The position numbers and the translations under genes were made by a program. Of a DNA stretch of 64,000 nucleotides, positions 29,901 to 59,130 are shown piece after piece (positions within the stretch are counted from its first letter, which is position 1; each line of letters begins with the position of its first letter). The notes below the pieces were generated by a model that worked only from the letters and a program-made list of their open reading frames with translations, was not told the origin of the DNA and ran no database searches. The DNA comes from Tubiluchus corallicola (Eukaryota; Animalia; Priapulida). The DNA is taken from the NCBI GenBank assembly GCA_030141605.1, contig JAQGDQ010002377.1:387582-451581 (forward strand), read 5' to 3'.

Positions 29901-32900
29901 GGTTGGCAACTTTTCTTGCAGCTTATTGCAAACCCAGAAGGAAAAGAGAAAAGTTGCACAGCAAGTTGCGAGAGAAGTTGCCAAACCACTCACACCTGCA
30001 ACTACTCTCAGACAGAAGTTGCGCAGCAAATTGCGAGATTAGTCTCTACGTCTGAACGTGCCAGTAGCATACCTCAGTATAATTTGAAACAACAACAGAT
30101 TTCTCTACATTTTTGTTTGTTGCATGAAAAGAGTACAGCAAGCTAGATAACACAAGGAGTTTCCCTGAATGTTCTGCCAGTGACACGTGCTCTCCAGAAA
30201 ACAATGACAGTATATCGTCAAAAAGGCACAACTGTATGGAATAACAGACAGCCAAAATTAATATGCCATAAGAGTAATAAAACATAAGTTACATGCAGAA
30301 ATTTAGTACAGTTAACTGTGCATGCTTGCACAGACAACAGTAATCAGAAAAATAAGGATTTTGATCAAGAAGTTGATTGACTAAGATACTAAGCTGGCGA
30401 ATTCAGACTCAATTTGTGAAAGGAAATTTATCTTTTTTGAGAGGGATTACAATATTTTGTTTACGTACAGTATGTAGATTTAACAGTACTGCTAATTTAC
30501 AACAGCTAGTGTTCTTGTTGGTAAGACAAAGTTAGTTTCAATTGTAGAAAAGTCATGTTCAAGACTACAGAATGTAAAATACCAAAAGCAAAATCAACAT
30601 CAGAAATCAAAATTTTATAAGACATAGACAATTTATTTTTCTTCTCTTAAGCATAATGCAACAAATCAACAATTGACTGGATGTATGTTCCTTCCATTTC
30701 AGGACTGTGAATTTATAACGATATCATTTTGAAGTAACTTTAAAAAAAATAAAATCTATAATACTAACTAACATGTACCTAATAATAGGCCCAGATCTAT
30801 AATAAAGTCACAGGAAAAAAGTCACGGAAAAAGCCACAGTTCTGGCTAAGGTCAGGGTTAGGGTTATTTTTTTTCCAATGCATTTTGTCAGCAACTTTTT
30901 TACCTGGGATCAGATAACCAGTAATGATAGTAATGCTAGTTGTTACAGTAGTCAGCTATAAGACTAGATCTTAACTTTAATAATGTTTATATTTTAGATT
31001 ACGATAGGAAGCAGTTTTCATATCACTGGGAAGGCTATTCCACAAAATAGACCCTGGAATTTCAGTGACCTGTCTCAAATTTGTGTTGAAACGTTCTATG
31101 TCATAATTGCTGCTGCTTGCAAATCTAGAGTTGTAATCATGTGTTGTGTCTATAGAGTGATAGTAATAAGAAAACAGTACTGGATGAGTGTTATGTTTGA
31201 ATCTGTAAACAAAATTGTTTAATTCTAATTTATGTATGTTTTAGTTTTAGCAGGTTTAATTCATAACACAACGATGTAACATGAGCTCTTCTACTGGCAA
31301 ATGTCATTAATTAAATAAATTTATTTTGATTGATTGTAAGGGGTTTCAAAGCTGAATTAGGGGCAATGCCATGAACAGTCAGAAATGAGTTTCATTGTAT
31401 CTTTATTGATATTATGCCCAATTTAAAAAAAGACATTCCATTAATTTTGCTTATTTTGCTGTTAACATGTTGGAATGGGAATGCCATGCCAATTAATAGT
31501 CAATTATTATTCCCAAGTGTTGTTCCTATATCTGTAATTGTCATGTGGCCTAAAACCAATTATTGCACCAAAATAATTGAGATTCTTTTATCATTTGTCT
31601 GGGAATAGTTTGTTCATCTAGCCCTGTGTTTAGCTACAACTCTGGCAAAGATGTAGTAATCGGTAATTTATGCTACGTATCGTCCATTGTTAAAGATCCA
31701 ACATGCCAGATAATACAGAAACAATTTGTATAACGACTATAACACAAAGCATGGTAAATGAGCAAGCATTCAGTAACTCAGCGAGCGTCTGCTTGTACAG
31801 TGAATGAGGCGCATGCGCATTTTTCCCACGATCTTGTGCTGATAGGCAAGCCTGTTCGAGTGCTTGTTGCTGGAGCTGATGTACAAAGGAAAAGTACGGC
31901 AGAAAATATTGCCCTCAACGCGAAGCACAATGTAGCAATGAATGATTTCAGTGAATTAGTTGAGGAACGTACTGATCATTACAAAACGAATCGGAGAATC
32001 ATCATGTGAAAGAAATTGCCACAAATACCTTCAGTAATGCAAGTTATGAAGATTACGAACCGGCTGTGCCGAGGAGCTTAATGAATGGAAAGCAGTTCAA
32101 ACGCAATTCGATACTCGGGTAAGACGTATTACAAACATATTCGCTCCGCCATATTGACCCCATACTAATGCGATAAATTAGTTAAGGACTGCAATTAGAA
32201 ACGTTTTTTCCAATAACAAGAAACGTCTTATGATACAACAAAAAATTGCTATACGGGAAGAATGTAGCAACATAGTTTATGAGACATTGAGTTTAATTTA
32301 ATAAATGTACCGGCAGTCCATAAATGCAAGTACATTTTTGGTGGGGAGGGGGTTTGAATCTCTCCAAACTTAGATCGTGAGAAACAATTTTAAGTTGAGT
32401 GTAAGAGTGAAGTCATGTGAAAGAAGCTTTTCAAAGCTTAAACAAACCAAAAACTGCTTGCGATCCACAATGGAACAGTCAAAGCTATCTGATCTTTCGG
32501 TTTTATCTGTTAAAATTGACTTAGCAAAAGTAATTGATTTTGATGAAGTAATTGACAACTTTGCAGCAGTGAAATCCAGGAATGGAAAGTTCTGATTGCT
32601 GACATAAATTATAATTAGTAAAATACTGAACTGTTTGTGTTTTAATGCCAGTTTCTTTTGATACTTCAACTAAGAAGTGTATTTTCATATGATTAAAAGT
32701 GCTGCTTCAATGTGCAAATATATCATAAAAATTAAAAATATTAAGTTTTCAATTTAAAATAAACATTGTCAGTATACTAATGTGTGCTTAGCACTTTAAC
32801 TCAGTAGGATGGAAAATAAAGTGATGTTGTCTAGATGATGTTTCTCCTAATCGCCATGCAGCAAGTACTAGCTATGCACATAAGATCATACTAAAGGATA

Positions 32901-35900
32901 CAGTATATAAGCTCCAATGCACGTTTGATACCATGAGTACTGCACCGAATGACACCAACCTTGTGGTTGCCAGATTAGAAAATTAGAAATATGGGACACT
33001 CTTATAATCTCTTTCCATACACACACATATATAATATAAGAGATTATAAGTGTCCCATATTTCTAATTTTCTAATCTGGCAACCATAGGGCAACTGTATA
33101 TATATATATATAGACATAAATTTAAACACGCCTAACACCCAGATCAATATATTATATAAAAGTAGAGACATAAGTTAAAAACATTAAGCAGGGATTTTAA
33201 TGGGTTATGAGGAAAACAAAAGTAAAATCATTTGAAAATATTTATTTAATACCGAAAATGGAGAAATATTATGATTATTTAATAATTACATTTGGGATAT
33301 TTTCATCAAAAGGATCTGAGAAAAGAAAATACAATTATTCATAAAGTTACTAGTAAGAACCCGTAAGAAGGTAGTAAAAATGCATTTTTATCACGAAATT
33401 TGAAAATGAACTAAATACGCCACGGGGGACAAAATTATCAAATATGGGACATGTCCTGTATATAAGGGACGTCCAGCAACCCTAACCCTAGCGAAGCCCC
33501 TGTTCACCAGACAGGCACACCTTAGACGTAGATATTTTTCTTCTCCGTCAGTATATGATTAAATTATTCGTGAGGCAAACAAATAATAAATTTATTTAGG
33601 AGATGGGCTAGGAAAGAGCTCAATGAACAACTTTTAGCTCCTTTGATGATTTTCAAAATTTATAGTAATTCTTTTCAATGGAAGGCATCTGTTACATAAT
33701 AGCAAAATGTTTACTACAACAATGTTGTGAGATACATAAGTTATTAATAACATCCTAGCATTTTAGGAATAACTCATCATTTAAATTTTTGACAGGACAA
33801 AGTTTATAGGCTTCAAAGTAAAATATCCTCTAAAATCTAATAAATCTTAACAATTTTATGCATACTAAAACTGCTGTGATGCCCAGGTATTGCCTTTTCC
33901 ACAGTTTTTGTGTGGCACTCCAGCACTCAGCCTTGGCTTATTTAATACCAGTGATTGTGGCACACCAGTACTCAGCCCTGGCTTATTTAATACCGGCGGT
34001 TGTGACAGGATCTGGCAAAGGATTCTGTGATAATCAGGAATTATCAAGGATAATCCTTTAGATGAAACAGTGAATTGGCAGAAGTGTCTCAGCCCGGTTG
34101 GGAAGATGAATACACTCCCTGAAGGAGATAAGCAGCCCGAATCAGTGTAGTAAGTGAAACAGTTTAAAGTTCATATAGAATCCAGTGGTCATCTATATCG
34201 CATTCACTGACCAGTGCTAGGTTGCGGAGTTGAGCCTAAAAGCACATCAATGTGGGTTCCTGATTGATGAAAGTCGACCCCAAACCTGACTCTTGAGGCC
34301 TGACTCCCAGAAGTTCTTAAAATTTTGATTTTTGAGGCATTTTATTAACCAGACTCAAACCATTAGATGATAGATATTATATTATGAACCTTAAGTAAAG
34401 GTACTGCTTAATATTTATGTTTAAGGCAGGAGTATTTTATTATCAACAGACTGTGGCTTTTCTTTACCTGAAGATCTAATCAGCAAAACATTAGAACCAA
34501 TGGAATTTTAAATGCATTGTTTTAAGCTGCAGACCCTGCATTGATCAGCTTCAGTATTGTTTAATTTTACTTATCTAAGCATATGCCATTATAATTCGGC
34601 TATCACCCTTGCCACAGAGATACTAAAAAGTATTATTATACTGTATTAATAGCATGTAATTATATAAAAATAACTTCCTGAAGTTTTTCTAGACAATAAA
34701 AGAGTAGCTATAAATTGTTGATATTATGATTTATAAATTATTGAACATGTTTTATTTGTTTTGACTTAAAGATTTGAAAGACATGGGGAAGCATTTTGCA
34801 ATTTTTTAACTCATTATCATTGAATATTAGAGCTACATTTATAGCCGAATGACTGTTATAAGTCTGTTGCTACTAAGCTTTAATTATCTGACTTTTTTGG
34901 TGAAACAGTTGTCTTAGCTATCAAAACTGACTAATTTGTTGCTAAAATAGAACATGTGACAGCAATTTTTGCAAAAAGTTAAAAGTCAAATGAAAACTAA
35001 CATGAGAAAACGAATAATTTTTAAGAACAAGAAACAAAGCCATTAGAAGTGCTATTTAGTACACCGCTGTGCGCTATCTTCCGATATGATTTATTGAAGA
35101 CATTTTATTTTGTTTTCCAAACTCTTAGCATCGACTAAGCACGGCATCGAATTGCACCAAGGAAATTCTGTCCTTTTGTCCGTTATGCTACAGATTTTGT
35201 TATGTTACTTTTGTTTTCTATATTATTGTGTTATGGTTTTGAAGTAGTTTTGCAAGGTTGTCTCTCATACCAGTTCAGTTCTTTGGTGTCTTGATCATCT
35301 TAGGCGTGTATTTTTTGTTGCCTCAGATGTGAGATATCAAAAGCCGACAATATACCTTTAGTCTGTTCCCGCAAAATTCAGTTACTTTTTTAGTCACTTT
35401 TCGATTTATACATGCCCATTAAAAAATTTTACGAAACGAAATTGTGTAAATACATGGCAACAATTTCAAAATAGAAAGCATGAATTTTTTTTACTCGAGA
35501 GAGGTACTCTGACTTTTCAGACTCAGAAATAAACACTTGTACTTCAATTACTTGTGTTGGATAAGTAATCCATGTTGTTTATGTTGGGAATTAGGGTTAT
35601 GATTCTATTTAATTTTACTGTAGCATTATTCTTCGAGAAAAATCATTATTTAATGTTTTTAATCTCGAATTTTATATTAGTTAAAGTTAACGTTTTATTC
35701 ACAGGTGAACAATTTGATGCTAGGAAAGCAAGTGAATAGTCTGCACAATCCCTTGTTCAATCATGAATGCTTATGAAATGAACGAAGAGCTGCAAGCTGC
35801 CATTGAACAGTTAGAACTTGAGCAAATCGATCTGTGTGGAGAGCAGGCTGGCGAAAGCTCTATTTCAGAACTGGTTTATACTAACAGCATCAAAAATATT

Positions 35901-38900
35901 ACTAGCAGCGTAACAGATGTGGGCTCAGTACAGCAGCAGCAAGCAGGCAGTCAGACTCGTTCAGCTGTGACTCATGCTACGTATCAGCAGCAGGCTCTAT
36001 CCAGAATAAATGAGTTTAATGTCAGCCTTGAGCTTATGAATACAGCCTGCGTTGATAGTAGAGATGGTTTGTGTGCGCTGGGTACCGGGACCGCTGTAAA
36101 AGATTTTGTCACTTTGGACGAATTCCAAGCTCTGCAGCAGAATCAAATGAAAGAATCATTTTCTGCTAGTGGGTTACTAGAGAGTTTAAACAATAATGAA
36201 ATAACTAATGGTACACCAGAGCATTTAGACAATAATGAAAATGTTTTTGACACTCTACAGAGTGAAGGGTACATTGAAACTGCTATTGATTCATTAGGGA
36301 CATTAGAGAATAACGACGTTGCTGTGACTATTGGCAGCAATGCATTAGATATAAATCTACTGCCGTTCAGCCAGCAAGACTCAGATCATTCGTTGTCTAG
36401 GCAACAACACACTACTTCACAAAAAGTAGAAATCAATAAGCAATATGAATTGGATCTGCCCATAGAAGATGTTACGGAGCAACGTCTTGCTAGTGATGTT
36501 ACCAAGCAGATGTGCAGTGATTATGGTATTGATGTGAAATTCAGTGTGGAAAATTTTACAAGTATGCCTGTAAATAATCAGGATAATGACTTGAATCGTG
36601 ATATAGATGATTCTGATTCTGATTCTTCAGATTCAGATTCTAATTCTGACGACTTTGATAATCAGGACAGTATTCAGAATTCAGTTGCTCCTTTAAATGA
36701 AAAAACTTCTGATAGCATAATTAATGGTTCGGTTTTCGAACGCAATGAAGCTAAAGTGATAAGTGGTTTTCCCATTAGTCTAAACAGTGATAATGTTGAA
36801 CAATTACAAGTAGAATGTAAAATCACAAATTCTCCAGTAAATATTGAAGAATGTCAAAAATACACAATAGAAAATTCCTGTAAGACGATCTTATTCAAAA
36901 CTGATGAACAGTGTGAATGTCTCGACTGTGGTGCATCACTGAGTAATCTTCTGAGTTCACAAGAACATCTTGGATTAATGACAGCCGTTGTGAAGTTGTG
37001 TACATGCTTACAGGAAGGTAGAAAATGTTTACATTATGCAAATGAAGTAAGCACCTCTAAGTTACATGTGAGTGAACTATACAGTTGTCATATGTGTGAA
37101 ATAACTTTTCACAGACTGTCTGCATTAACAAATCACATGGTTATGAAACATAATGATGAGGACTCAACTGACAATCAAAGTGTTGCTGCTAATTACATAC
37201 AACCACCTGCTAGTTTGCAAAAGACCCATAAATGTGGAATTTGTCCAGCTTCATTTTCCAATGTTTTTAATTTGCAAAAGCATGGTAGAGTTGTTCATAG
37301 TGCAATACCAAAACAGTATCGATGTACTAAATGTACTGCTTCTTTTCAAGCCTTGAAGAATTTAACATTACATCTTCGGCTTCACGAAAATGAGCAGCAG
37401 TCATTTGAGTCTCAGCGAATAGATAAAATAGCGACAAAAACCCCAACAGCAGGAACTGATGAAGCCAGTAAGCCTGATCAAGCTAGTAAGCCTGACAGTA
37501 TTGACAAAATACCAGTGAATGGCATTAAGAAGGCTGGGAATACAGATGAGAAATCAATAAAGTGTAGAATGTGCCCGGCTGCATTTAAACATACAGCAAG
37601 CCTTAAAAGGCACATACAAATCACTCATAACAAGATAAAAATGTATTCATGCAAACTCTGCCCAGCTAGATTTGGAGTTAAATCAACAGTTAAAAAACAT
37701 ATGAGTGATGTGCATGGGGGTGTGCCTAAAAAGTATAAATGTCAACATTGTACTGCTTCATACAGAGCCCTGAAGAATTTGCAGCGGCACATGAAACTTC
37801 ATATTGCTAAATTACAGCCTGTACAGGAAAAAAAGAAAAACCAGTACCTCTGTTTTTTGTGTAGCACAAGATGTTCATCAGCGGATGTTCTTAAAGAACA
37901 TATTAAAACCCACTCTGAGACGAAAGAGCCAACGGCAGATATAACAACTACACCAAGAAAAGCACTTCTGAAGATATTTAAGTGTAATGTCTGCTCAGTT
38001 AGTTTTCACAGTCGACTAGACAGGGATGTGCATTTGCAAACTGCTCATGAGAAGGCAAAATCAACACCTGAGCAACAAAACAGTAGCTTGGATTCCAGTA
38101 TATGCAGGGTATGCAAAAACAGTTTTAATTCTAAAGCTCTCTTGGACCAGCACATGAAGCAGTATAAGAAGCTGTATGAGTGTAATGCTTGCCCTGCTAT
38201 GTTCAAAGTATCCACTAACAGAAATAAACACGTGAATAATGTGCATTCTGGTGCATTAAAGGCTTTCCGATGCGATGTTTGTGGAGGTGGATTTCACAGA
38301 GAATATAGCTTGCAAAGCCACATGCTACTGCATAATCAAGCCCACAAAGAGCAATATAAGTGTGATAAGTGTGATTTCAATTGTAATTCGTCAGAACAGC
38401 TGAAGACTCATATCATTTGCAAGCATTCAGTAACTGCACAAAGTCCTGGAATTATCATAATGGACACTCCAACTGTAAGCCTGCAAAAAATCAAAGTAGA
38501 AGATTCACATGCCGAGGCTATTACTATTCAGGAGTCTGCAGACATGGATTTTTGTGAAGATATGGAGCACTGTTGTGACATTTGTGGAAAGTTTTTCATG
38601 AAAGAGTCAGAGTTACTAGTACATGAAAAAGTACACATGGCACTAAAACCTTATAAATGTGGAATTTGTGGTCTAGACTTTTGTGACATGAGTACACTTG
38701 ACATCCACCAAACATCACATACCAACAAGTCATATGAAGCATACACAAAAATGGTTGCCGAGACTTCAAATTCAAGCTGCTATGTTGACTTCCAAAATAT
38801 TGGTATGCGAGAACTACACAGCAGTGGTAATGAAAATCTTAGTAATGAGAGAAAAGTGCCATTTGGGAAGAAAAGAGAAAGAGTTTATGAGTGTGACACG

Positions 38901-41900
38901 TGCAAGAAAGTCTTCAAAGATGGAGGAACTCTGAAAGTTCATAAGCGCATACACACAAACGAAAGGCCATACATTTGTCACATTTGTCAAGCAACATTCA
39001 GACAACACCACCATCTAGTCAGACATGTAGCAAGCCATAGTGATGATAAACCATTTTCTTGTGATGTGTGCGGAAAAAGATTCAAATTAAGCGAATACCT
39101 CACAACACACAAGGCTGTGCATTCACAGGCTAAGAAATTCAAATGTGGAGTATGCGGCAAAGATTTTCGCCTATACAGCGATTTGAGAGCTCATCAGAAA
39201 GTTCATGCATCAAAAAACGCAAAGACTGATGGTATGTTTGACAATAAGCTTGCTTTTGATAGTCATGATACTAGTCACTCTAGGCTTAAACCCCACAAAT
39301 GTCCCGTTTGTAAGAACGGTTTTAAAGTGGTTCGCCACATGAAAATTCATTTGTGGTCACATTCTAAGAACAATATGCACTATTGTCTCACTTGCGGAAA
39401 AAAATTTCAATCTCAAGTTGGCTTAGCTGTCCACAAAAGAATTCACATTGTAAAAAAAGAACTTGAAGAGGTTGTGAATGCAAGCACTAACTTGACGCAG
39501 TACGTGACCAGCACTAGTAAAGGTAAACAGTACCAATGTCCCGTATGTGAAGTGAAATTTGCACAGTCTACCTATCTGAGTGTACACTTGCGAGTTCACA
39601 CAGGCGAGAAGCCATATAAGTGTGAGGTTTGCAATAGTCGTTTTCGACAAAGAGCCCATCTTAAATGTCACATGTTCACTCACACAGACCACAAACCTTT
39701 TTCTTGCAAAATATGTGCTGCATCTTTTAAGCAACTTTCAGCTTTAAAAAAACATGGTTTAGTACACACTGACTTAAAGCCATACAAATGTGATTCTTGT
39801 AGTGCAGAATTTGCACAATCAACCGACTTGCTAAATCACATTATGGTACATAACGAAAATAGACCCTATACTTGTCAAACTTGTTTCGCTACATTTAAAA
39901 CTGAATCATTCTTCAATAGCCACATTAAAGTACACACCCATCTTAAACCTCACGTTTGTGATGAATGTGGAAAAGACTTTCGAATCGCTGCAAATCTAAC
40001 AGTTCATAAGAGAACTCACTCTAACGAAAAGCCATACCAGTGTCAAATCTGCTCAAAGCGATTTAAACAAACAGGACACTTGAAAGTTCATTTGTCAATA
40101 CATGCAGACTCGAAACCATATAAATGTGATTCTTGTGGTGCCAGTTTTAGGCAACCAGGAAACTTAAAGAGTCACCAAACCGTTCACACAGATGAAAGGC
40201 CACATGTATGTGACATTTGCCAATCAGCTTTTAAAACGTTTAGTTATTTGCAAAGCCACAAGCGAATACATACAGATTTGCGTCCATATAGCTGTACATG
40301 TGGAAAAACATTTAAAACACCAGATGGATTGAAAGCGCACGAGAAAACTCACACAGATGAAAAGCCATATGAATGTCGCCATTGTCATGCACGCTTTAAG
40401 CAGCAGCCTCACCTCAAAACTCATCTACTTACACATAGTACTCACAAACCTTATTGCTGTGACACTTGTGATGCACGCTTTAAACAGTCATCCCACTTGA
40501 AAGTTCACATGGCTGTTCATAGCGATGTGCGACCATTTCCTTGTCATATTTGTGGTGCGGCATTTAAAACATCAACTTCACTCAGTAGTCATAAGCGCAT
40601 TCACACGGACCTGAAGCCATATGTATGTGACGTATGCAACAGAGCCTTTAAATTTTCGGAAGGACTAAAATCTCACAAGAAAACACACTCAGCTGACAAA
40701 CCTTTTTCATGTGACCAGTGTGGAGCATGTTTTAAGTTGGCTGGTTATCTCAAAAGCCATATGCTAGTTCACACTGAAATACGACCCTATTGTTGTTCTA
40801 CATGTGGAGCTACTTTTAAAACAGCCAGTTACCTCCATAACCACAGCAAAATTCACACAGACATTCGACCTCATATTTGCCACATTTGTGGAAAAGGTTT
40901 TAAAATGTCATCAAACTTGCGAGCTCATGCACGAACTCATTCAAACGAGAAACCATATTCTTGTGACCAATGCTCTGCACAGTTTAAGCAAATTGCTCAT
41001 TTAAAGATGCATGTCAGAACTCATTCTGATTTGAAACCCTATAAATGTGATTCCTGCGAATCTCGTTTCCGACAGTCTGCGCATTTAAAAGTTCACATGG
41101 CTGTTCACACTGAATCACGACCATTTGCTTGTGAAATTTGTGGAGCTGCATTTAAAACACAATCATCATTAAACTCACACAAGAAAATCCATACAGACAT
41201 TAAACCTCATTCATGTGATGTATGTGGGAAATCATTCAAATTTGCTGTTGGATTAAAAACTCACAGGCGAATTCATACAAATGAGAGACCTTTCTCTTGC
41301 GATACATGCCATGCTAGTTTTCGACAGGCTGGCAATTTGAAAAGTCATATGGCAGTGCATACAGATGTTCGACCGTACGCATGCCCAACATGTCAAGCTG
41401 CCTTTAAAACATCATACTATCTCCAGAATCACATTAGAATACACACGACTGCTCGTCCATTTCAATGTGATGTCTGTGAAAAATCTTTTAAATTTAAGGA
41501 GGGATTACAATCTCACAAAAAGACACACACAAATGAACGCCCATTTGAGTGCGATACATGCCATGCACGATTCAAGCAAGCTGCTTATCTCAGAAGTCAC
41601 ATGCTTGTACATTCAGATGAAAGAAATCATTTTTGTGACATTTGTGGATCAGCTTTTAAAACTGCTGTTTATCTTGCCAATCATAGGCGCATTCACACTG
41701 ATATGAGACCATACAAATGTGATATTTGTTACAAGGATTTCAAGCTGCCCGATGGCTTAAAGGCACATAAGAAGACACATTCCGATGAAAAACCATACTC
41801 GTGTAATATATGTGGTGCAAAATTCCGGCAAACAGCCCACGTAAAGGCACACATGTTAACCCATTCAGATGCTAAACCTTATAAGTGTGACACCTGTGAT

Positions 41901-44900
41901 GCTTGTTTTAAGCAGTCAGCTCACTTAAAATCACATCTTGCTGTACACAGTGAAGAAAGAAAGTACTCATGTGATATTTGTTATTCTGCTTTTAAAACAT
42001 CTACTGCTCTAAACAGTCATAAAAGAATACATACTGATATAAAGCCTTATATATGTGCTACATGTGGCAATGCTTTCAAAACACCAGACGGATTGAAATC
42101 TCACCAGATTAGTCATATGGATGAACGTCCGTTTGAATGTGATACATGTCATGCTAAATTTAAGCAATCCACAAACTTGAAATATCACATGGTGGTGCAT
42201 TCGGAAGAAAGAAATTATACATGTGATATATGTGACTCTGCTTTTAAAACTATGGCATATCTTACCACACATAAGCGTATTCATACAGAACTGCGTCCAT
42301 ACATTTGTGAATGTGGAAAAGACTTCAAGACACCTGATGGACTGAAATTGCATAAACGTACACACACAGGTGAGAAGCCATACTTCTGCAGTTTATGTGG
42401 TATGAGATTCAGGCAGTCAGGACATCTTAAATGTCACATGCAAACTATACATTCCGATTCTAAGCCATTTAAATGTGACACATGTGATGCATGTTTTAAA
42501 CAGTCAGCAAACTTGCGCAGCCACATGGCCGTACATTCTGATATTCGTCCTTATCCATGTCCTATTTGTGAGGCCACTTTTAAAACATCTACTTCATTAA
42601 GCAGCCATAAACGAATACACAGTGATATTAAACCACACATTTGTGACGTATGTGAAAAAGCATTTAAAACATCAGAAGGACTGAAGTCACACAAACACTC
42701 ACACACAGATGCTAGACCCTTTGAGTGTGATACATGCCATGCCAAATTCAAGCAAGCAGGAAATTTAAAGAGCCACATGGTAGTGCATACTGAAGAACGT
42801 CCATGGACTTGTGATGTTTGTGAAGCCTCCTTTAAAACACAAGCATACCTTCATAGTCACAAACGTATCCACACTGATATAAGGCCTTACATTTGTGAAT
42901 GTGGAAAAGATTTTAAAACACCCGATGCATTAAAACTTCATAAACGTACACATAGTGATGAAAAACCGTACGCTTGTGAAATTTGTCATTCAACATTTAA
43001 GCAGCTTGCCCATGTACGAGTTCACATGGCTACACATTCTGATCTCAAGCCATATAAATGTGACACTTGTAGTGCTAGCTTCAAGTTGGCAGCATATTTG
43101 AAAACCCACATGATTGTTCACACTGAAGAAAGACCATGGATATGTGACGTTTGCCAAGCTGCTTTTAAAACGTCTAGTTATCTTAGCTCACATAAGAAAA
43201 TTCACACAGATTTGAGACCATACATTTGTGATCAGTGTGGAAAAGACTTCAAGCTTCCTGATGCCCTGAAACTTCACAAGAGAACACATTCAAATCTAAG
43301 ACCGTTTTCATGTGATGTATGTGGTCAGAAATTTCGGCAAACTGCACATGTTAAAGCACACATGCTTACGCATTCAGATTCAAAACCATTCAAATGTGAT
43401 ACTTGTGATGCTTGTTTTAAACAGTCCGGGAATTTGAAATCTCATATGACAGTACATTCTGATGTTCGGGCTTACTGTTGCCCCATATGCGGAACAGCTT
43501 TTAAAACAACCACATCATTAAACAGTCACAAACGGGTTCACAGTGACATTAAGCCTCATATCTGCTCCACTTGTGGCAAAGCTTTTAAAACTAGAGAAGG
43601 GCTAAAGTCACACAAATACACACACACAGATGAACGTCCATTTGCATGTGATACATGCAGTATGAGTTTTAAGCAATCCTCCAATTTAAAAAGTCACATG
43701 ATTGTGCATACTGATGTAAGACCACACGTTTGTGATATATGTCAGGCAGCTTTTAAAACAGTTAGTTACCTCACTAGTCATAAACGAATTCACACAGATT
43801 TGAGACCATATAACTGCGAAATATGTGGAAAAGATTTCAAGTTACCAGATGGATTGAAACTCCATAAACGAATACACACCAATGAAAAACCTTTCTCGTG
43901 TGATACATGTCAAGCTGCCTTCAAGCAGTCTGCTCATCTCAAAGTTCATATGACAGTTCATACAGACGAGAGAAATCACATTTGTGATATATGTGAATCA
44001 GCTTTTAAAACTGCATCATACCTAGCCATTCATAAAAAAACACACAGTGATGTAAGACCTCATATCTGTGATATCTGTGGCAAGGGATTCAAGTTTACAG
44101 ATGGGCTGAAAGCTCATAAAAAGACTCATACATCTGAGAAGCCATACCAATGTGAGATATGTTTTAGACGATTTCGACAAGGAGGACATTTAAAAATACA
44201 TCTTCTTACACATTCTGACTCAAAACCTTTTAAATGTGACACATGTGATGCATGTTTTAAACAGTCTGGCCATTTAAAGGTTCACATGTCAGTACATTCA
44301 GATGAAAGACCTTTCCCTTGTGCAGTGTGTGGTGCTGCATTCAAAACATCAACATCTCTGAGCACCCATAAACGTATTCACACTGACCTGAGACCCTATT
44401 CCTGTGACTTGTGTGACAAAGCATTCAAGTTTTCCACAGGCTTGAGAGCTCATAAAAAAACTCACACAGGAGAAAAGCCATATAGCTGCAAGATTTGCGG
44501 TGCTCGATTCAGACAAATTGGTCATGTGAAGGTACATATGACAACTCACTCAGACCTGAAGCCATATAGCTGTGACACATGTAACGCTTCTTTTAAATTA
44601 GCAAGTTACTTGAGAAGCCATATGGTTGTCCATTCTGAAGAAAGAAAATGGACTTGTGACGTTTGTCAAGCATCATTTAAGACAAATACCTACCTTAATT
44701 CGCATAAGAAGATACATACAGATTTACGGCCACACATTTGTGATATATGTTCCAAAGATTTCAAGCTGCCGGAAGCACTGCGCTTACATAAAAGAACACA
44801 CACTGACATTCGACCTTATTCATGCGAGCTGTGCAATGCAAAGTTTCGCCAAACAGGACATCTCAAGTGTCACATGCAGACAAGGCATTCAGATTTGAAA

Positions 44901-47900
44901 CCATTTAAATGTGATACCTGTTCTGCATGCTTTAAACAACCTGCAAATTTAAGAACTCACATGCTAGTGCACACTGATGAAAGACCACATCAATGTCAGA
45001 TATGTGGTGCTGCTTTCAAGACAACTACTGCTCTTAATTCTCACAAACAGGTGCACAGCGATGTACGCCCATTCATTTGTGCAAGATGTGGTAAGTCATT
45101 CAAAACCCGTAATGGGCTGAAATCACATAAAATCACTCACACTGATTCTAAGCCCTTTGAGTGTGATACATGCAGTGCCTGTTTCCGACAATCAGCACAT
45201 TTGAAGGTTCACATGACTGTTCATTCTGACTACAGAGGATATCCTTGTACAGTATGTGGTGCTGCTTTCAAAACAGGTACTTCTTTGAAAAGTCACAGTC
45301 GTATACATACTGACATCAAGCCCTTTATATGTGATGTGTGTAACAGAGCATTTAAGTCAAAAGATGGGTTAAAACATCACAAGATAACTCATTCTAATGA
45401 AAGACCATTTGCATGTCTACAATGCAGTGCTAAGTTTAAACAAGCCACTTATTTGAAAAACCATCAGTTAGTTCATTCAGATGTAAAACCATTTCAATGC
45501 CAAGTGTGCTCAGCTGCTTTTAAGCTGCCGGCTTATCTTAGGTCACACATGATGATTCACGGAGATTTAAAACCGTACCAGTGTCAGATATGCAATAAGC
45601 AATTCAGACATTGGAGCACGCTGAAGATCCATACAAGAACACACACAAATGAACGGCCTTATGAATGTGAGACCTGCCATAAGATGTTCTCACAAAATGG
45701 TCATCTAAAGTTGCACATGATGATTCACTCGGGCGAAAAGCCTTACTCGTGTACCGTGTGTAATAGGCGTTTTCGACAACATAGACACTTATTAACGCAC
45801 AAAGTAAAACATGTAACTGATCGACCATACCAATGTAATAGTTGCCAATCTGCTTTTAAAACACATACTTCATTGCAGTCTCATAAACGAATTCACACTG
45901 GTGAAAAACCGTATGAGTGCACCACGTGTTGCACAAGTTTTAGACAGCTGAGTCACTTAAGGAGGCATCAACAATGCCACAGAAACCCGGCTTCAAGGTT
46001 GAAACCATTTAAATGCACTTCTTGTCCAAAAGCATTTAGAAAGGCCACACATCTCCGAGCACATGAAATTGTCCATACTGATAGTAAGCCTTTCAAGTGC
46101 CCAATCTGTGATGCAGAATTCCGTCACGGACGTTCGCGTAAAACACATATGAAATGTCACCAGCCTACACTCATGCATCAGTGTGATGTGTGCTTACAAA
46201 GCTTTAGTGAAGAGGAAGAACTAAGATCACATTCTGAAAGTCATGTACAAGAAAGTGCATATACATGTGAACAATGTGGCGAAAAGTTTAAGAGAGCATC
46301 GCTTTTGTCAGCTCATACTGCATTACATGAGAGAGAGAAATTATCTGCTGATGGCTACATTGAATTTGATAGACCGTATCCTTGTTCACAGTGTAGTGCA
46401 CAATATGAATCAAAACAAGGATTAGCAAAACATATGCTTGTTAGACATGCAACACTTGAAGACCTGCGTTGCAACTTGTGCCACAACACATTTACCTCAT
46501 TGCAGTTACTACGTGAACATATGAGAACTCACAAAGAAAAAGAACACATGTGCAATGTATGCAACAACACTTATACCTCAAAACATTTATTACGTATACA
46601 TATGAAAATTCACAAACATACTAGTAAAGAACATGTTTGTAATGTGTGTGGGAAAGTTTTTAAAAATGCTAGTAGCCTTTGTCATCATAGAGAAATTCAT
46701 GTTGAAGGCAGACCTCATGTGTGCACAAAATGCAATGCGTCTTTCAAAACAAAGAAAACTCTTTGGGCACACAGTAGGATTCATACAAGGGAAAAAGTGT
46801 TTTCTTGTAATAAATGCGGTGAAAAGTTTTCAGTAAAGGAACAGCTACTGCAACATAAGCAAAGTGCTCATTCAGTTGGTAAGACTAAGAAATGCTCTAC
46901 TGCCAGTAAGAATTATGACTGCGAACAATGTGCTGCCAGTTTCAAGTTCCTGACACTTTTAAAACAACACAAAGAGGCCCACAAAACTGCCATATGTGAC
47001 AAAACACAACTTGTGAAAGGAACTGCCAGCAAACCACGAAAGACACACAAGTGTCCCGAGTGCAACAAATTGTTTACTCATTCGTGGAATTTGAAAAATC
47101 ACCTGTATTCTCATCGTGCAAAACCCGTTTACAAATGTAATCTTTGTCCAAGTACATTCAGTAGGGAAGCACATTTAGTTAGGCACATAGCATGCCATAA
47201 AGGAAAAGAATTGTCAGTAAGTGTCAAAGTGCAAAGAATTCCTCATTTGCAAGAACAGCGCAATATGTCACAGACAGTTAATGATGCCCCAATACCAACT
47301 CCTGAATTCAATTATTTGCATAACACAAACGAAATAGTTTTAGACAAAATTCCTATTAAGCAAGAACCCCTAGATTACTCCCTTGTGGAGGATGATACCT
47401 CCAGCCCTGTGCATGAAGAAGGTAGTAATGTAGATGATGCTAACTTCTGTATTGAAGAATGTAACATAGAAGAGTTTTACCTTTCACCATATTTGGGTGA
47501 AAGCAACAAAGAGACAGTAGGTGAAGGCTGTTCTGCTATCACCATTAAGAAGGAAATGTCGCACTTCTTGTAAGTGGCTAATGAAAACTTTTATATTTAC
47601 AAAATTGTCTGCAAAACTCACTTATACTTATACTGCACAGTGTAGTGTACTATATTGCTAATTTTGTTTAATTGTTTGAACCTTGCACCACTTCTTTATT
47701 AAAATGTAGCGTAATTTATCCATATTTGTTGCACAAGTTATGGAAGCATGTTAAGACTATCGTATAACTCATGATAAGCTTTGGGTAAACCTTTGTAAAA
47801 TGAGTTACTTGCTGCAGATGTTTTGTCACATTTTGAATACAAAGATATTTATGGTTTCTTGCAGCAAAAATGTAAGTCATGTATCTATAAGATAAAAGTT

Positions 47901-48803
47901 GCTGGAGCTACATGTACTGCTTTTCGTTTGCTAGCAATTGGGTATTCCCAGCTCTAGTTCTGCTCAAGTGATATATAACGGGCTTCATGAAGCCAAGTGA
48001 CCTGAATGATAAAGTCCTTGCTGCTTCAACCTCAGAAAGCATTGATGAGATAGTCTCCAAAAATCATCACATTAGTGTATTGTTTTACTCAGTATTAGTA
48101 ATAGAGTTAGTGTCACTAACACTGTGTGTAATTTCAATATTATGTGTAAATTCAATCTGATGTGTTGTCTGTGTAAATCCAAGGTTAGTCGTTATGGTGC
48201 ATGCACATTTGCTCTTCCAAACTATAAGTATTATTCAATTCACTTTTTTTTATGTTTTACATCTCGTATTGCTTCGATTTCCTAAAGAAAGGTTCATGGA
48301 TGCGTGTATATTTGTCAGCTAAAGTTGCCTTAAGAGTTGATAAAATATGAATGAAATTATTGTAGGGTTATGTTATTGCTAGTATGTTAGTACCATTTAC
48401 TCGATGTGACTTGATATTGTCAAGCATTAGTGCCATTTATTTAATGTGCAAGCTGCACAAATAGTATTGCTCGTAGATGTACTTGTAACTTTGTCAGTTA
48501 TTCATGTTGTGAACTAGAAAAATTATGTTATTGAACATGTAAATAATTTTAATGTACTTAGAAGTATGATTGTAAAATGAGATGTATAGAACATGTTGGA
48601 AACCTAAGCACGAAAGATGTTCGCTGTTCTCTGACATAATTTAAGTGTGCACTGTGTCTGATGTGCATGTGCTTTTAATTTGCTAAGTAAACTTACAATG
48701 TATATGATGATGTATATTAAATCAAATCCCAGGAAACCGACCCTAAAAACTTTTGTACACATAAAAATAAATGCTGATTAACTTAAATACATTAACAGTA
48801 CTA

Positions 48804-48841
<38 letters not shown>

Positions 48842-48845
48842 CATC

Positions 48846-48901
<56 letters not shown>

Positions 48902-51900
48902 TACCATTACCTTCATGTGTTTAGTTCAAAAAGTGAGTTTGAGTATGTCGAATACATTTATCATATATCGTATTCACGTAGAAAAGTTTTGTCTTATTTT
49001 GACTGGTTTGTAGTTTGTGTTTTAGTATTAACACCAAGTGTAATATACACTCACACATTTTATTATGTTAACAAACTAATTAATAAACACCACAGTAATC
49101 ACAATGTTTTCTTTGGCGTTTTTTTATGTAAAGCTTAAGTCTTATTACTGCTTTTCTTCAGAAATTGTGTTATCATACATAAATTACTTGTGGTTCACAA
49201 GTTAAGAATATTTTTGATATTTTTGCATTAAAGTGCAAACTTGCCAAAAGCATGACTTTAAACGTGGCAAACACAAGGTAATACGAAGATACTATCAATT
49301 AATGGCAAAGCCTAAATGTGCCAGCCCAGAACCTTGTTCATCTTCATAAATGATCCTGTAAGATGAGACACTGAACTACGTTGAGGGCTCAATGCTTCTA
49401 GATACTTATATATTCCGAAAAGAAGGTAAACAACTTAGGGCAGTTTGTCAGATAAAGCTGCCTGTAAGCAGTTTTCCTGTTAGTCACTTATCCTTTTACT
49501 AGCCAAGCTCACTATTATTTAACCTTAGGCACTCATCTATCACCGTGTTTGGATAAAATAAACTTAAACTCAATAATTCTCATATGAATCTTAGAATAAA
49601 ACAGCAGTATCAAGATGGTAATGTAAAACTTCATCACAAATGCTTTATTTCTGTAATGACAGTGTTTTGGCAGCCATTGCGCAATATAATTACCTCATTG
49701 TTATCCTCTTCACTGGACCTCTGTCGCTCCGTTTTCTGAGCTGATTTCCAGATCAGTTGAGGATGGTTGCACAGTTTCTTGAGTGTTGCTATACATGCTA
49801 GATGCACTCTGCCATCAGCTATTACAAAATTAATAAATTCAGTGCAAATTAATCTGCATCAAGTTAAAAAGATGATTATGTAATTTAGCATTACTACAGC
49901 ATTATTATTTTTTTATAATTTTAACTGCAAGATTATTATTAATGATGGACAGAATAAGTATTAACTTTTTTAAACCAACCTAGTGAAGAAGGAAAAGTTT
50001 AACAGTAACAGGTCAAATGTCATGACCAATAGACCACACAGCACCTTGTGATCAAGGCAGATCTTAATTAAATCTTAATAGATTACCAATTAATGCAGCA
50101 TATCTAAGTTTCACTCAAACAAAGTTTCACTTAATTACTAACTGATTAGATTAATGTTTTTATAATTTATTTACAGCCTAGATTAATCCAAGTGCAACTG
50201 TTTAACCCCTGTGTAATATTATGATTAATTATTTATAAACTTGATTGTAAGATTATTATTATAATCATAGAACAACAATCAACATTTTTCTTTAATTTGA
50301 TTTATAGGTGGAAAATTAGGTAGTGTTTTGATAAATTAACACTTTTTCAATGCTAAGCTATACAAAATACAAGTATAGAGAGTCAATTTCCTCATAAAGT
50401 TGCAAAATGCACAACAGTGTTATTTAAAATGTTTTTAATTTAAAAATAAATTGCCTGTGCACACTGACACACAAATTCTTCTGTTTGTTGGGTATTACCT
50501 AACTAATTATAACGCAGCTATAGCTAAATCATGTAGCATTTTTTACACATGCGATACACCAATACACTCAAAAGAACATTAATTTAGATCGACATATAAA
50601 GAAAAACATAATTAAATTTAAATCAAGAATTTACCTGTGTTGTAGTCATCCAAGTATTGTTTTAAAAGTTGTGAATGAAGGATGGCTTCATATACTTTCA
50701 CTTGGAATGATGACGGCTGACAAAATATTACCATTTCCACTAAAACCATACCATTAATTTTTACCATTATTTATAAAATAACTTATTTATGATTGATGAA
50801 ACACATATGTGGTTTTAAGAAGTTTTTTTTACAAAAAGCACAAAACACAAAAAGTTATTGCAGCACAATTAAACAAATACCTGAAGTTAATGAATTTTCT
50901 TAAAAATTAGATTAGTAGCTAAAATTTCAAGGTAAACGGTAAAAATTAAAGTTAACATTGCATGATTCAATATATACATTACACGAATGTCTCCTCAATT
51001 TCTAGTGATAAACGTAATGTTATTTCAGTTCTTTTACTGTATGGAAAAAATAGTTATTTTTGATGCTGATAATGGAGCATCGTAGATGATAATTTCCTAC
51101 CTTTTGATGGTAAATATGCATTATTAACGCTCTGAGTGCGACGTAAAACAAACATTTGTGCTAGCCTCGCTAAGTCATTTTCCCGAGCTTTTCCAAATTC
51201 AACATGTTCCTTGGAAGCTTCTGGCTGCTTGGACAGTAAAATTGGATTTTCCCAGAACTTCTTGAATGTGACACATAAACCTGACAAAACATGACTACAA
51301 TATAATGTATGGGGTTTGCCTGCAATTCCTGAGCCCCAGTAAGCCCCCCCCCCCCCACTAAAAATACATCAAAGGAAAATGTGTAGGTAAGCAAGAGACT
51401 TGAATAGTGATCTCATTAATACAGAGCATTAACAAATTAGCCAAAACTAATAACCTAAAATTGAAGAATAGGCATGCATAAAATATCAAAACACTTTGTC
51501 ACCATTAAACACAAGCTATTTCATGTTTGTACATTCATTGACTGATTTATCTATCATTTATTTCGCTTGTTTTAATGTTAGTATGGGGTTTTGTAGTCTA
51601 TGATGCCCTGGTGTGTGAACCCAGTTAGTCTATATGTAAGTATGGCACTGGCCCAGACACATACGATTAATGTATTGTGAAATTATAACAAAGTACTTTT
51701 ATATTTTAGGATTATATAAAAATTATCATTTCACTGCTAGAATCATTGATTATGTTTTAGTATTTAGGTAAATAAAGACACAGGGACCCCTATTTATTTT
51801 AGTTTCTAATTATTATGGGAGCAGTCACTCACTGTTGGTCTGAATAGTTAACCGAAGATATGACACTGGATCCAAAGGCTATGGACCACAGAAATAGAGA

Positions 51901-58760: not shown

Positions 58761-59130
58761 ACACAGATAAGGACAGTTTATAAATAATAATAACCATTTA
58801 AAAGTGGCAGCGGTGCAGCTGTGGCATAGCTAGAGCTTGTGGCACCTTGGGTGACACTTAAAATTACCCCTCCCCCATGAAAATGTTATAGTTTTGTAAA
58901 ATTCAGCAGTGTTACCTCACAGTTGCGATAATATGCGGACATAAATTGATAAATAATGAAGTATTACAGAAAAAGAGAAAAAAATCGGTTTAAAACCAAA
59001 ACCGAGATCGTACTTTGGGACAACAGGTGATAACCAAGAAGCTGCAGTTTCCAGAAGTAGTCAATCACAAAGATTATGCAAAGTTTGCAATGGGCCTCAC
59101 GGTGTTTGGAGGTGTGATGAGTTTCGCAAG

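Follow-up and report, generated by a model that had tools for sequence, protein, structure and literature searches.

A giant C2H2 zinc finger gene with an unbroken 77-finger array inside a RAD54B intron of the priapulid Tubiluchus corallicola

Why C2H2 proteins bear far more fingers than specificity requires is a long-standing question. Human C2H2 proteins have a median of 11 fingers (PMC13541613), Xfin has 37 (PMC7614390) and the Oncopeltus ZF271-like proteins have 3-45 (PMC6444547). It is common for the human proteins to contain internally duplicated sub-arrays that each serve as a DNA-binding unit, separate from the others but similar to them, and ZNF775 and ZNF721 have arrays built from multi-finger blocks that were duplicated and then conserved, with the ZNF721 blocks matching alpha-satellite sequences (PMC13541613). 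PRDM9 carries a long tandem array in one exon that grew by internal duplication, its mouse fingers being >90% identical, with positive selection at -1/+3/+6, and it has a SET domain (PMC2779102). SALL4 ZFC4 and Zfp568 have small or hydrophobic contact residues in place of Arg/Lys, by which they read AT-rich DNA (PMC12264921; PMC9838217). SALL4 reads such DNA broadly and is located on pericentric heterochromatin (PMC12264921; PMC9838217), and in ZNF512/ZNF512B the recognition of repeated DNA is coupled to chromatin silencing (PMC13537249).

The gene described here lies in a 64,000-nucleotide stretch of T. corallicola DNA (the window), and its features are collected in Table 1. A predicted protein of 449 kDa is encoded in a single open frame, 3,936 codons long and closed by TAA; by chance, at the same base composition, a frame of such length would have a probability of ~10^-129. 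The ATG is the first in frame because an in-frame TGA lies upstream at 35733. With fingers defined by the strict pattern C-x1,4-C-x12-H-x3,5-H/C and runs by linkers of <=9 residues, the runs are, in order, 1, 2, 3, 1, 1, 3, 2, 4, 2, 77, 4, 6, 1 and 2, and the 77-finger run occupies aa 1259-3406. Two degenerate C-x2-C motifs, at aa 386 and 781, are additional to the 109 fingers. A preliminary description of this DNA had counted about 110 fingers in 3936 codons without a stop, 77 of them contiguous, and the strict count bears this out. It had also called the gene intronless, which holds for the coding region but not for the transcript, because a 5' non-coding exon is predicted. Pfam recognized only C2H2 families in the whole protein (PF00096/PF13465), with no KRAB, SET, ZAD, BTB or SCAN domain and no SET/PR domain with KRAB/SSXRD of the kind present in PRDM9.

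Table 1. Features of the finger gene and its host locus (positions in the window)
Feature	Position	Strand	Basis
Predicted promoter: GCGCATGCGC, sole copy in window, CpG-rich patch	31809..31818	+	
Predicted non-coding first exon, CGG|GTAAGA donor at end, start approximate	31830..32118	+	
Predicted splice acceptor (...TTAACGTTTTATTCACAG)	35680..35704	+	
Single coding exon, 3,936 aa, 109 C2H2 fingers	35763..47573	+	strict pattern, Pfam
Acidic N-terminal region, aa 1-440, net charge -50, without known domain	35763..37082	+	
Fingers 1-19, clusters of 1-4 with spacers	37086..39446	+	
Unbroken 77-finger run, F20-F96	39537..45980	+	
Core of run, F25-F89: one D finger, then 18 (A)-B-C-D modules	39957..45392	+	
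Fingers 97-109, short clusters	46014..47198	+	
Acidic tail	47199..47570	+	
Predicted 3' UTR	47574..48771	+	
RAD54B phase-0 intron, 19,462 bp, whole finger gene inside on opposite strand	30232..49693	-	
Host RAD54B, nine exons of C-terminal half	26518..57421	-	

The motif in the predicted promoter is presumably an NRF1-type site. Similarity to the contig of a related organism starts at 35682, at the predicted acceptor, and an additional upstream coding exon is unlikely. The first AATAAA after the frame is at 48766, and pieces of a presumed-RNA run (X6) extend to 48443, inside the predicted 3' UTR; the lack of X6 pieces at the 5' part of the gene carries no weight. The exon regions of the host RAD54B lie at 57421, 51302, 50740, 49816, 30231, 29592, 29186, 27285 and 26703; splicing of the finger frame into RAD54B is ruled out by the opposite strand. 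In a synteny check, Priapulus caudatus RAD54B spans 12.8 kb, without the 19.5-kb intron and with no finger array inside. Outside the fingers, the protein contains, in the region of fingers 1-19, what we take to be two motifs of the SUMO consensus (aa 910 and 1230) and a basic NLS-like stretch (aa 1036), and in the tail a presumed SUMO-consensus IKQE (aa 3865), with a putatively CtBP-motif-like PLDYS immediately behind it, and a second such SUMO motif, IKKE (aa 3928). The 940 non-finger residues hold four [IV]KxE motifs, where 0.66 would be expected (p 0.003).

The preliminary description had named a mis-assembled array as a potential pitfall, which is unlikely: no exact repeat of at least 40 bp occurs in the frame, depth is even (181-196, on contigs of 5,386, 1,783 and 2,974 bp, which show 0-1 differences) and the array pieces covered in a relative at about 6% divergence are colinear and gap-free. 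Array blocks are only 65-72% identical to each other, finger-to-finger DNA identity is 51% on average and 81% at most, and a sample from a second study agrees in 27/30 bins. Two short-sided joints of run X1 (sides of 25 and 33 bases, 80% likeness) fall within the frame and were attributed to cross-matching by other finger genes; read depth revealed no close paralogs at >=80% likeness. That the gene is an assembly artefact or a non-expressed relic has in its favor that no certain-RNA record contains the frame, that no contig spans all of it and that run X1 may be the assembly's own source. These points are countered by the repeat, depth and relative data and by a pN between modules far below pS, and we regard this largely refuted reading as extremely improbable. 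Divergence from the relative is lower in the array than in the N-terminal region. The classified ortholog differences (29/35, at aa 449-675, outside the array) comprise 18 non-synonymous and 8 synonymous codons, and this stretch is under weak constraint; 15 of the 18 non-synonymous codons fall in spacers or linkers.

Searches with the array found no ortholog among proteins of 2,164-6,888 aa (best local identity 42%, best 120 of 148 matches) or of up to 1,192 aa (47%, best 120 of 7,013), and a search with aa 1-680 against 1.84 billion representatives found none among the 150 matches listed, all of which go through fingers. Residues 1-440 provided the best-matching stretch in none of the top 150 matches, the Atlas leads for them being sub-0.9 and unusable; otherwise the Atlas search returned generic finger clusters. 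The class grammar described below was present in 0 of 77 loci from JGI metagenomes, at 45% identity or less in cassette alignments. None of the database matches is close, since the protein's own cassettes are 50-72% identical to each other. The database searches did not identify the protein as an ortholog of a characterized giant ZNF, an identity that the preliminary description had allowed for, and the possibly undescribed family it had proposed is seen only as one gene with near-identical copies in related samples. A suspicion that two salamander matches (P0079 and P0076) are ZNF646-like was not confirmed. We found no published description of the gene or of an equally long unbroken array in a literature search that took in few subscription papers, with the supplementary ORF tables of PMC10547256 outside its scope.

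The preliminary description had placed the protein beyond typical poly-finger proteins, and its array is indeed far longer than those of Xfin, the Oncopeltus proteins and the human median, the first two being half its length or less. The total of 109 is no record, because two beetle isoform models and one blowfly model among the matches have 100-141 fingers, at most 9 in a row. The longest unbroken run among 377 zinc finger matches is 25-30, and the run of 77 is the longest unbroken one among everything compared. Together with the age, order and contact residues of the array described below, it makes the gene a clean and extreme case for asking why fingers are so many. The Callosobruchus CAI5857397.1 (131 fingers, strict pattern) and Calliphora XP_065363358.1 (100) models likewise consist of repeated, conserved cassettes, but these hold <=9 fingers with long spacers between them; both models are 23-26% identical to this protein, and none of its four class motifs is enriched in them. 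The Oncopeltus proteins also lack an effector domain but form a large, fast-turnover family (PMC6444547).

Fingers F26-F89 follow a strict order, (A)-B-C-D, repeated 18 times, in ten modules with four fingers and eight with three; a regular interleaving of the two sizes was not significant (permutation p 0.16). The grammar is recovered without the helix residues, the nearest neighbor belonging to the same class for 62/65 fingers, and clustering agrees with the classes at an ARI of 0.82-0.87 at four clusters. The module duplications are ancient: within classes, synonymous sites are saturated (pS 0.83) at a pN of 0.24-0.31, and all 77 fingers of the run have intact zinc ligands. The array is old and conserved rather than fast-evolving, with four finger types in fixed order. 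The helix positions -1 and +3 are conserved within classes, with pN of 0.23 and 0.28 and entropies of 0.71 and 0.99 bits vs ~2 at neighboring free positions, whereas +6 varies (pN 0.57, 1.9 bits). Nearest-neighbor retention is 0.77 at -1 and 0.62 at +3, compared with 0.45 at both in the 33/116 long finger proteins with comparable framework identity; it is not unique to this protein, because two other matches (P0028 and P0029) equal or exceed it. In contrast to the two or three blocks of ZNF775 and ZNF721, there are 18 modules here, duplicated long enough ago for synonymous saturation and accompanied by no KRAB (PMC13541613). The array also differs from that of PRDM9 in its lower finger identity, its conserved -1/+3 and the absence of SET and KRAB.

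The array is without the arginines that normally read guanine. Arg or Lys at -1/+3/+6 occurs in 0/65 core fingers (F25-89), compared with 3,611 of 7,269 fingers (50%) from 240 comparison proteins and 13/32 fingers outside the run; among the 231 contact positions of the whole run, only 2 are R/K and 158 are outside Q/N/H/R/K/D/E. Gln occupies -1 in 10/10 A and 15/18 B fingers, and Thr in 18/18 C fingers; +3 is His in 10/10 A and Gly/Ala in 17/19 D fingers. Hydrophobic residues are exposed on the helix at +3 in C (Tyr), at -1 in D (Phe/Leu) and at +8 in A/B (Met). Position -2 is K/R in 74/77 run fingers, K is frequent at +5, and the net charge is +2 per finger (+155 for the run), with B fingers low at +0.7. 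The usual CxKxF backbone lysine is gone in 44/46 A/B/C fingers and kept by the D class only; together with the low B charge, its loss could mean weak or no DNA binding. The linkers have the canonical 7-residue length of the TGEKP type in 72 cases, with Gly in 5 and Asp in 47 of these, compared with Gly in 2,868/4,102 comparison linkers. A predicted model of F65-71 has seven canonical fingers (pLDDT 87.9; pTM only 0.46). This DNA-free model aligns with DNA-bound CTCF ZF1-7 at a TM of 0.75 and with the spacer-containing ZF3-11 at 0.37, a fold match expected of any tandem array. Spacer fingers such as CTCF ZF8, HIC2 ZF2 and TFIIIA ZF4/6 cross the groove without base contacts and have no reliable sequence mark; one known spacer finger has Pro at the helix start, and Pro is at +1 in 8/19 D fingers here vs 311/7,269 comparison fingers.

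Judging from sequence, we see about an even chance that the giant protein reads AT-rich DNA in chromatin as a conserved, multivalent binder. The 18 modules would provide many weak, similar grips on AT-rich DNA, chromatin would be bound by avidity, and short motifs of the acidic ends may bring in co-regulators. By the published recognition code, the A and B fingers, which have Gln at -1 and His/Asn at +3, would read A and G/A; the C fingers, with Thr at -1 and Tyr/Ser at +3, may make versatile or thymine-methyl contacts; and the D fingers (Gly/Ala +3, often Pro +1, backbone Lys) would be a low-specificity anchor or spacer. Since a module would specify only ~2-4 bases, selectivity would come from many modules engaging together, either on a single extended stretch of AT-rich or repetitive DNA or on several segments at once. 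The protein would have a nuclear role, with SUMO-linked repression or architecture. Matches to a crude code-derived site in the rest of the window (52 kb searchable) were no better than in shuffles. The small or hydrophobic contact residues of SALL4 and Zfp568 offer a precedent for reading AT-rich DNA in this way (PMC12264921), but in SALL4 two fingers do this, the searches showed no orthology, and AT-rich binding is only predicted here. ZNF512/ZNF512B represent the kind of role proposed and are likened by role alone, not by sequence (PMC13537249). Because single modules as well as multiples of them can be expressed, it is possible to measure avidity, the function of spacers and the reach along DNA directly, and the array is a natural template for the design of long finger arrays on AT-rich DNA.

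The near-invariant K/R at -2 and the frequent K at +5, in fingers without Arg/Lys at base contacts, would also suit an array that binds RNA, or DNA and RNA non-specifically, by contacting the backbone, so serving long or repetitive transcripts as a scaffold, and low-specificity RNA binding by classical fingers has been reported (PMC5100589). We think this rather unlikely, because Gln -1 with His/Asn +3 is a standard combination for reading DNA bases and shows strong conservation, the linkers keep their canonical length and the SUMO-consensus enrichment suggests a chromatin regulator. A conventional modular transcription factor would use a small number of sub-arrays, among them the Arg-containing clusters at the termini, each on its own short site in dispersed promoters or enhancers, with most of the central array redundant. 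It would account for the Arg/Lys contacts outside the run, and human C2H2 proteins normally use their sub-arrays in alternative ways (PMC13541613). Decay or deletion would be the expected fate of redundant fingers, and all 77 keep zinc ligands and class-specific helices despite synonymous saturation; such a factor is accordingly also rather improbable. The exposed hydrophobics and the lost backbone lysine would be compatible with a protein-interaction or structural rod making no nucleic-acid contact, which the conserved basic -2, the base-reading Gln/His/Asn and the charge of the run render very unlikely. The structural role suggested in the preliminary description fares better in a broader sense, as the repeated, conserved module fits a structural or multivalent role.

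The same description had suggested multi-target surveillance of transposons or satellites, and an arms race in which each finger stretch addresses a different element would be in keeping with the repressor-type motifs in the tail and with contact positions that are variable when pooled over classes (2.0-2.7 bits). Across animals, tandem-finger gene number follows transposon load (PMC10547256). The claim is not supported, because the array, instead of diversifying, is a repetition of some four finger types, with -1/+3 conserved within classes over saturated synonymous sites rather than hypervariable. There are no recent duplications among the fingers (at most 81% DNA identity), no close paralogs at 80% likeness by read depth and none of the effector domains listed above, and the array has diverged less from the relative than the N-terminal part has; we judge an arms-race factor quite unlikely. 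A multivalent AT-rich reader might, with only slightly better prospects than the arms race and still improbably, act as a molecular ruler, with one module per helical turn and D as a once-per-turn backbone anchor, one polypeptide reading a phased AT-rich pattern over ~190-230 bp and organizing satellite or centromeric chromatin. The basis for this is a mean of 3.56 fingers per module, which at 3 bp each comes to ~10.7 bp; an ancestral repeat of seven fingers might yield the same mean, and helical-phase regularity in the module order was not significant. The span of ~190-230 bp corresponds to a nucleosome repeat length, and the searches made turned up no finger protein of such reach.

The frame of the finger gene continues for 3,936 codons before its stop, an in-frame TGA at 35733 fixing its start, and encodes a 449-kDa protein with 109 C2H2 fingers by a strict pattern. 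Seventy-seven of these, F20-F96, form an uninterrupted run spanning aa 1259-3406. The preliminary description, which had given 3,936 codons, about 110 fingers and 77 contiguous ones, was therefore correct in its counts. Pfam recognized finger families and nothing else. The protein is a true member of the tandem C2H2 class and, on its Pfam domains, does not belong with the KRAB, ZAD or PRDM9 proteins.

Within the tandem C2H2 proteins, the finger protein is new in length, grammar and chemistry. No ortholog was present among the matches listed in the protein, 1.84-billion-representative, JGI metagenome and Atlas searches. The longest run among 377 finger-protein matches, a ranked sample and not a census, is 25 fingers, or 30 when linkers of up to 15-20 residues are allowed, compared with 77-88 in the finger protein at the corresponding limits. 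Three models (two Callosobruchus isoforms and one Calliphora) have 100-141 fingers, in clusters all of nine or fewer. Xfin is described with 37 fingers (PMC7614390) and the Oncopeltus ZF271-like proteins with 3-45 (PMC6444547). The protein-search matches P0003, P0498, P0029, P0011 and P0028 are uncharacterized models from beetle and blowfly; they have 55-141 fingers, arranged as conserved cassettes of 5-9 fingers that recur with long spacers between them.

Similarity between fingers is highest at lags 3, 4, 7, 11, 18 and 28, and the core, F25-F89, falls into four classes: A (Gln at helix position -1, His at +3), B (Gln at -1, Asn/His/Tyr at +3), C (Thr at -1, Tyr/Ser at +3) and D (variable -1, Asp/Glu at +2, Gly/Ala at +3). 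The order is one D finger followed by 18 (A)BCD modules, ten of four fingers and eight of three. The classes were set by eye and afterwards tested without any helix residue, the nearest neighbor agreeing in 62 of 65 fingers and four-cluster solutions giving ARI 0.82-0.87. Fingers F20-24 and F90-96 match the grammar loosely and are excluded from the class counts.

The contact chemistry is unusual. Arg and Lys are absent from -1, +3 and +6 in all 65 core fingers, whereas 3,611 of the 7,269 fingers counted across 240 comparison proteins carry one there; the longest stretch without them is 73 fingers, as opposed to 28 elsewhere. At -2, 74 of the 77 run fingers carry Lys/Arg. The Lys of the C-x-K-x-F motif, which has a backbone role, survives in all but one of 19 D fingers and in only 2 of 46 A/B/C fingers; that position is K/R in 3,314 of 4,102 comparison fingers. 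Linkers retain seven residues, Asp mostly replacing the Gly of TGEKP. Class D, with Pro at +1 in 8 of 19 fingers, resembles a spacer or anchor finger, but according to a review spacers are not predictable from sequence (PMC12264921). By the code in the same source, the run is predicted to read A 48 times, G 24 times and C once; 158 of its 231 contact positions would make versatile or thymine-methyl contacts, as occur in SALL4 and Zfp568. Inter-finger geometry is set by boundary residues +9 and -2 (PMC7293014), which are class-specific in the array. A DNA-free structure model of F65-71 (pLDDT 87.9, pTM 0.46) is closer to the continuous CTCF ZF1-7 wrap than to spacer-containing structures. Outside the fingers are acidic ends, an NLS-like stretch and four SUMO-consensus motifs where 0.66 would be expected (p 0.003); PLDYS comes right after one of the four.

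Over 522 within-class finger pairs the synonymous difference is 0.83, which is saturated, and pN within classes is 0.24-0.31; by helix position pN is 0.23 at -1, 0.28 at +3 and 0.57 at +6. Framework-nearest fingers retain -1 at 0.77 and +3 at 0.62. The corresponding medians are 0.31 and 0.28 across 116 long finger proteins, and 0.45 at both positions in the 33 of them whose framework identity is similar; two insect proteins exceed the finger protein. Because synonymous sites are saturated, pN is low and -1/+3 are retained, the array is, judged from sequence, old and kept by purifying selection. Counter-evidence comes from sites outside the run (aa 449-675). The 29 of 35 ortholog substitutions classified there change 18 codons non-synonymously and 8 synonymously; most fall in spacers, and zinc ligands and contact positions are all untouched. 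PRDM9 differs in having fingers described as homogenized and positively selected at -1/+3/+6 (PMC2779102).

Mis-assembly of the array, raised in the preliminary description, was not borne out, and it is hardly credible that the gene is an artefact. Within the run, DNA identity between fingers averages 51% and never exceeds 81%. With exact repeats all below 40 bp and only 65-72% identity between duplicated blocks, the array poses little difficulty for assembly. Of the six listed sequencing runs, four were compared with window positions 33000-48600. Run X1 is possibly the source of the assembly and hence not independent support; its contigs over the frame (2,592, 5,386, 297, 1,783, 2,974 and 1,255 bp), none covering it entirely, include some that lie inside the frame, and these have a depth of 181-196, similar to the flank, with 0-1 differences, so the array is neither collapsed nor doubled. 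In X4, from a separate study, 27 of 30 bins have depth and the pieces are near-identical. X5 is a diverged relative whose match to three pieces of the array is gap-free at 5.7-6.2% difference. Its divergence is higher in the other pieces: 10.3% in a fourth from the array, 14.9% in the acidic N-terminal region and 9.4%, with gaps in addition, in the 3' flank. One X5 contig (record 22, window 44562-46072) switches strand between 45644 and 45676 and is probably an amplification chimera. X6, RNA only by guess, has depth in 9 of 30 bins. Four of its pieces fall within the frame and differ by 5-9%, and two more, in the 3' flank, reach 48443, with higher depth in that flank; this is a weak hint, short of proof for a full-length message, that a relative transcribes the gene.

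The reading that we favor, with about even confidence, is a conserved chromatin protein carrying many weak modules for AT-rich DNA. Each (A)BCD module would grip AT-rich DNA weakly, and selectivity would come from module number, whether the modules line up on one extended tract, AT-rich or repeated, or bridge DNA segments. There are precedents: duplicated sub-arrays can work as similar binding units, as in ZNF721 on alpha satellite (PMC13541613), and weak helices can bind with the help of backbone contacts (PMC5588721). Others are SALL4, which occupies AT-rich heterochromatin (PMC9838217), and ZNF512, which binds satellites (PMC13537249).

That the array instead binds RNA is unlikely, and so, to a like degree, is an ordinary modular factor. 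An array serving as a ruler, with one module (3.56 fingers, 10.7 bp) per DNA turn, is distinctly doubtful, module order alone lending it no support (p 0.16). An arms-race surveillance factor is quite improbable: contact residues are the most variable in the families described in PMC10547256, whereas this apparently old array, under purifying selection, keeps -1 and +3 within classes. A protein rod is very improbable.

Minus-strand exons with SNF2 and helicase-C motifs on both sides of the finger gene belong to RAD54B. The host is an invertebrate, and its RAD54B groups tentatively with Priapulus in a quick tree (support 87, long branch, 36 of 120 matches used). RAD54B of Priapulus caudatus has neither a corresponding intron nor any finger array. 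From the CpG-rich patch near 31800, the GCGCATGCGC within it, and the donor, acceptor and AATAAA listed in the table, we infer that the finger gene is a nested antisense gene with a putative non-coding first exon.

Features of the window
Feature	Position	Strand	Remarks
Metallophosphoesterase-fold open frame	1692-2282	-	CpG-rich patch at about 2400-2900
Tandem repeat	14054-14648		about 20 copies of a 30-bp unit; 91% matches
GOLD-domain match, faint	18866-19093	+	E 0.006
RAD54B	26518-57421	-	nine exons mapped by tblastn
RAD54B intron holding the finger gene	30232-49693	-	19,462 bp, phase 0, at about aa 649
CpG-rich patch	about 31800		20 CpG per 400 bp, median 6
GCGCATGCGC	near 31800		inside CpG-rich patch; only copy in window
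Predicted donor	32118/9	+	3' of GCGCATGCGC and CpG-rich patch
hAT dimerisation remnant, faint	32374-32592
High-copy element, MITE-like	32959-33484		42-bp inverted arms 32959-33000 and 33049-33090; X1 depth about 8,800
Predicted acceptor, good	ends 35704	+	58 bases 5' of ATG
Finger-gene frame	35763-47573	+
AATAAA	48766	+	downstream of finger-gene frame
Most CpG-rich patch outside retrotransposon	53300-53900		adjoins CT/TG microsatellites; within RAD54B intron
Bel/Pao LTR-retrotransposon pol frame	58960-63441	+	unbroken 1,493 codons; protease, RT, Peptidase_A17, integrase, DUF5641

Both the MITE-like element and the hAT remnant lie within the finger gene's predicted first intron. The Bel/Pao pol frame is CpG-rich and is probably located in the next upstream RAD54B intron. 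The GOLD-domain match is perhaps an exon of some gene between 3 and 25 kb, and the metallophosphoesterase frame resembles the beginning of VPS29.
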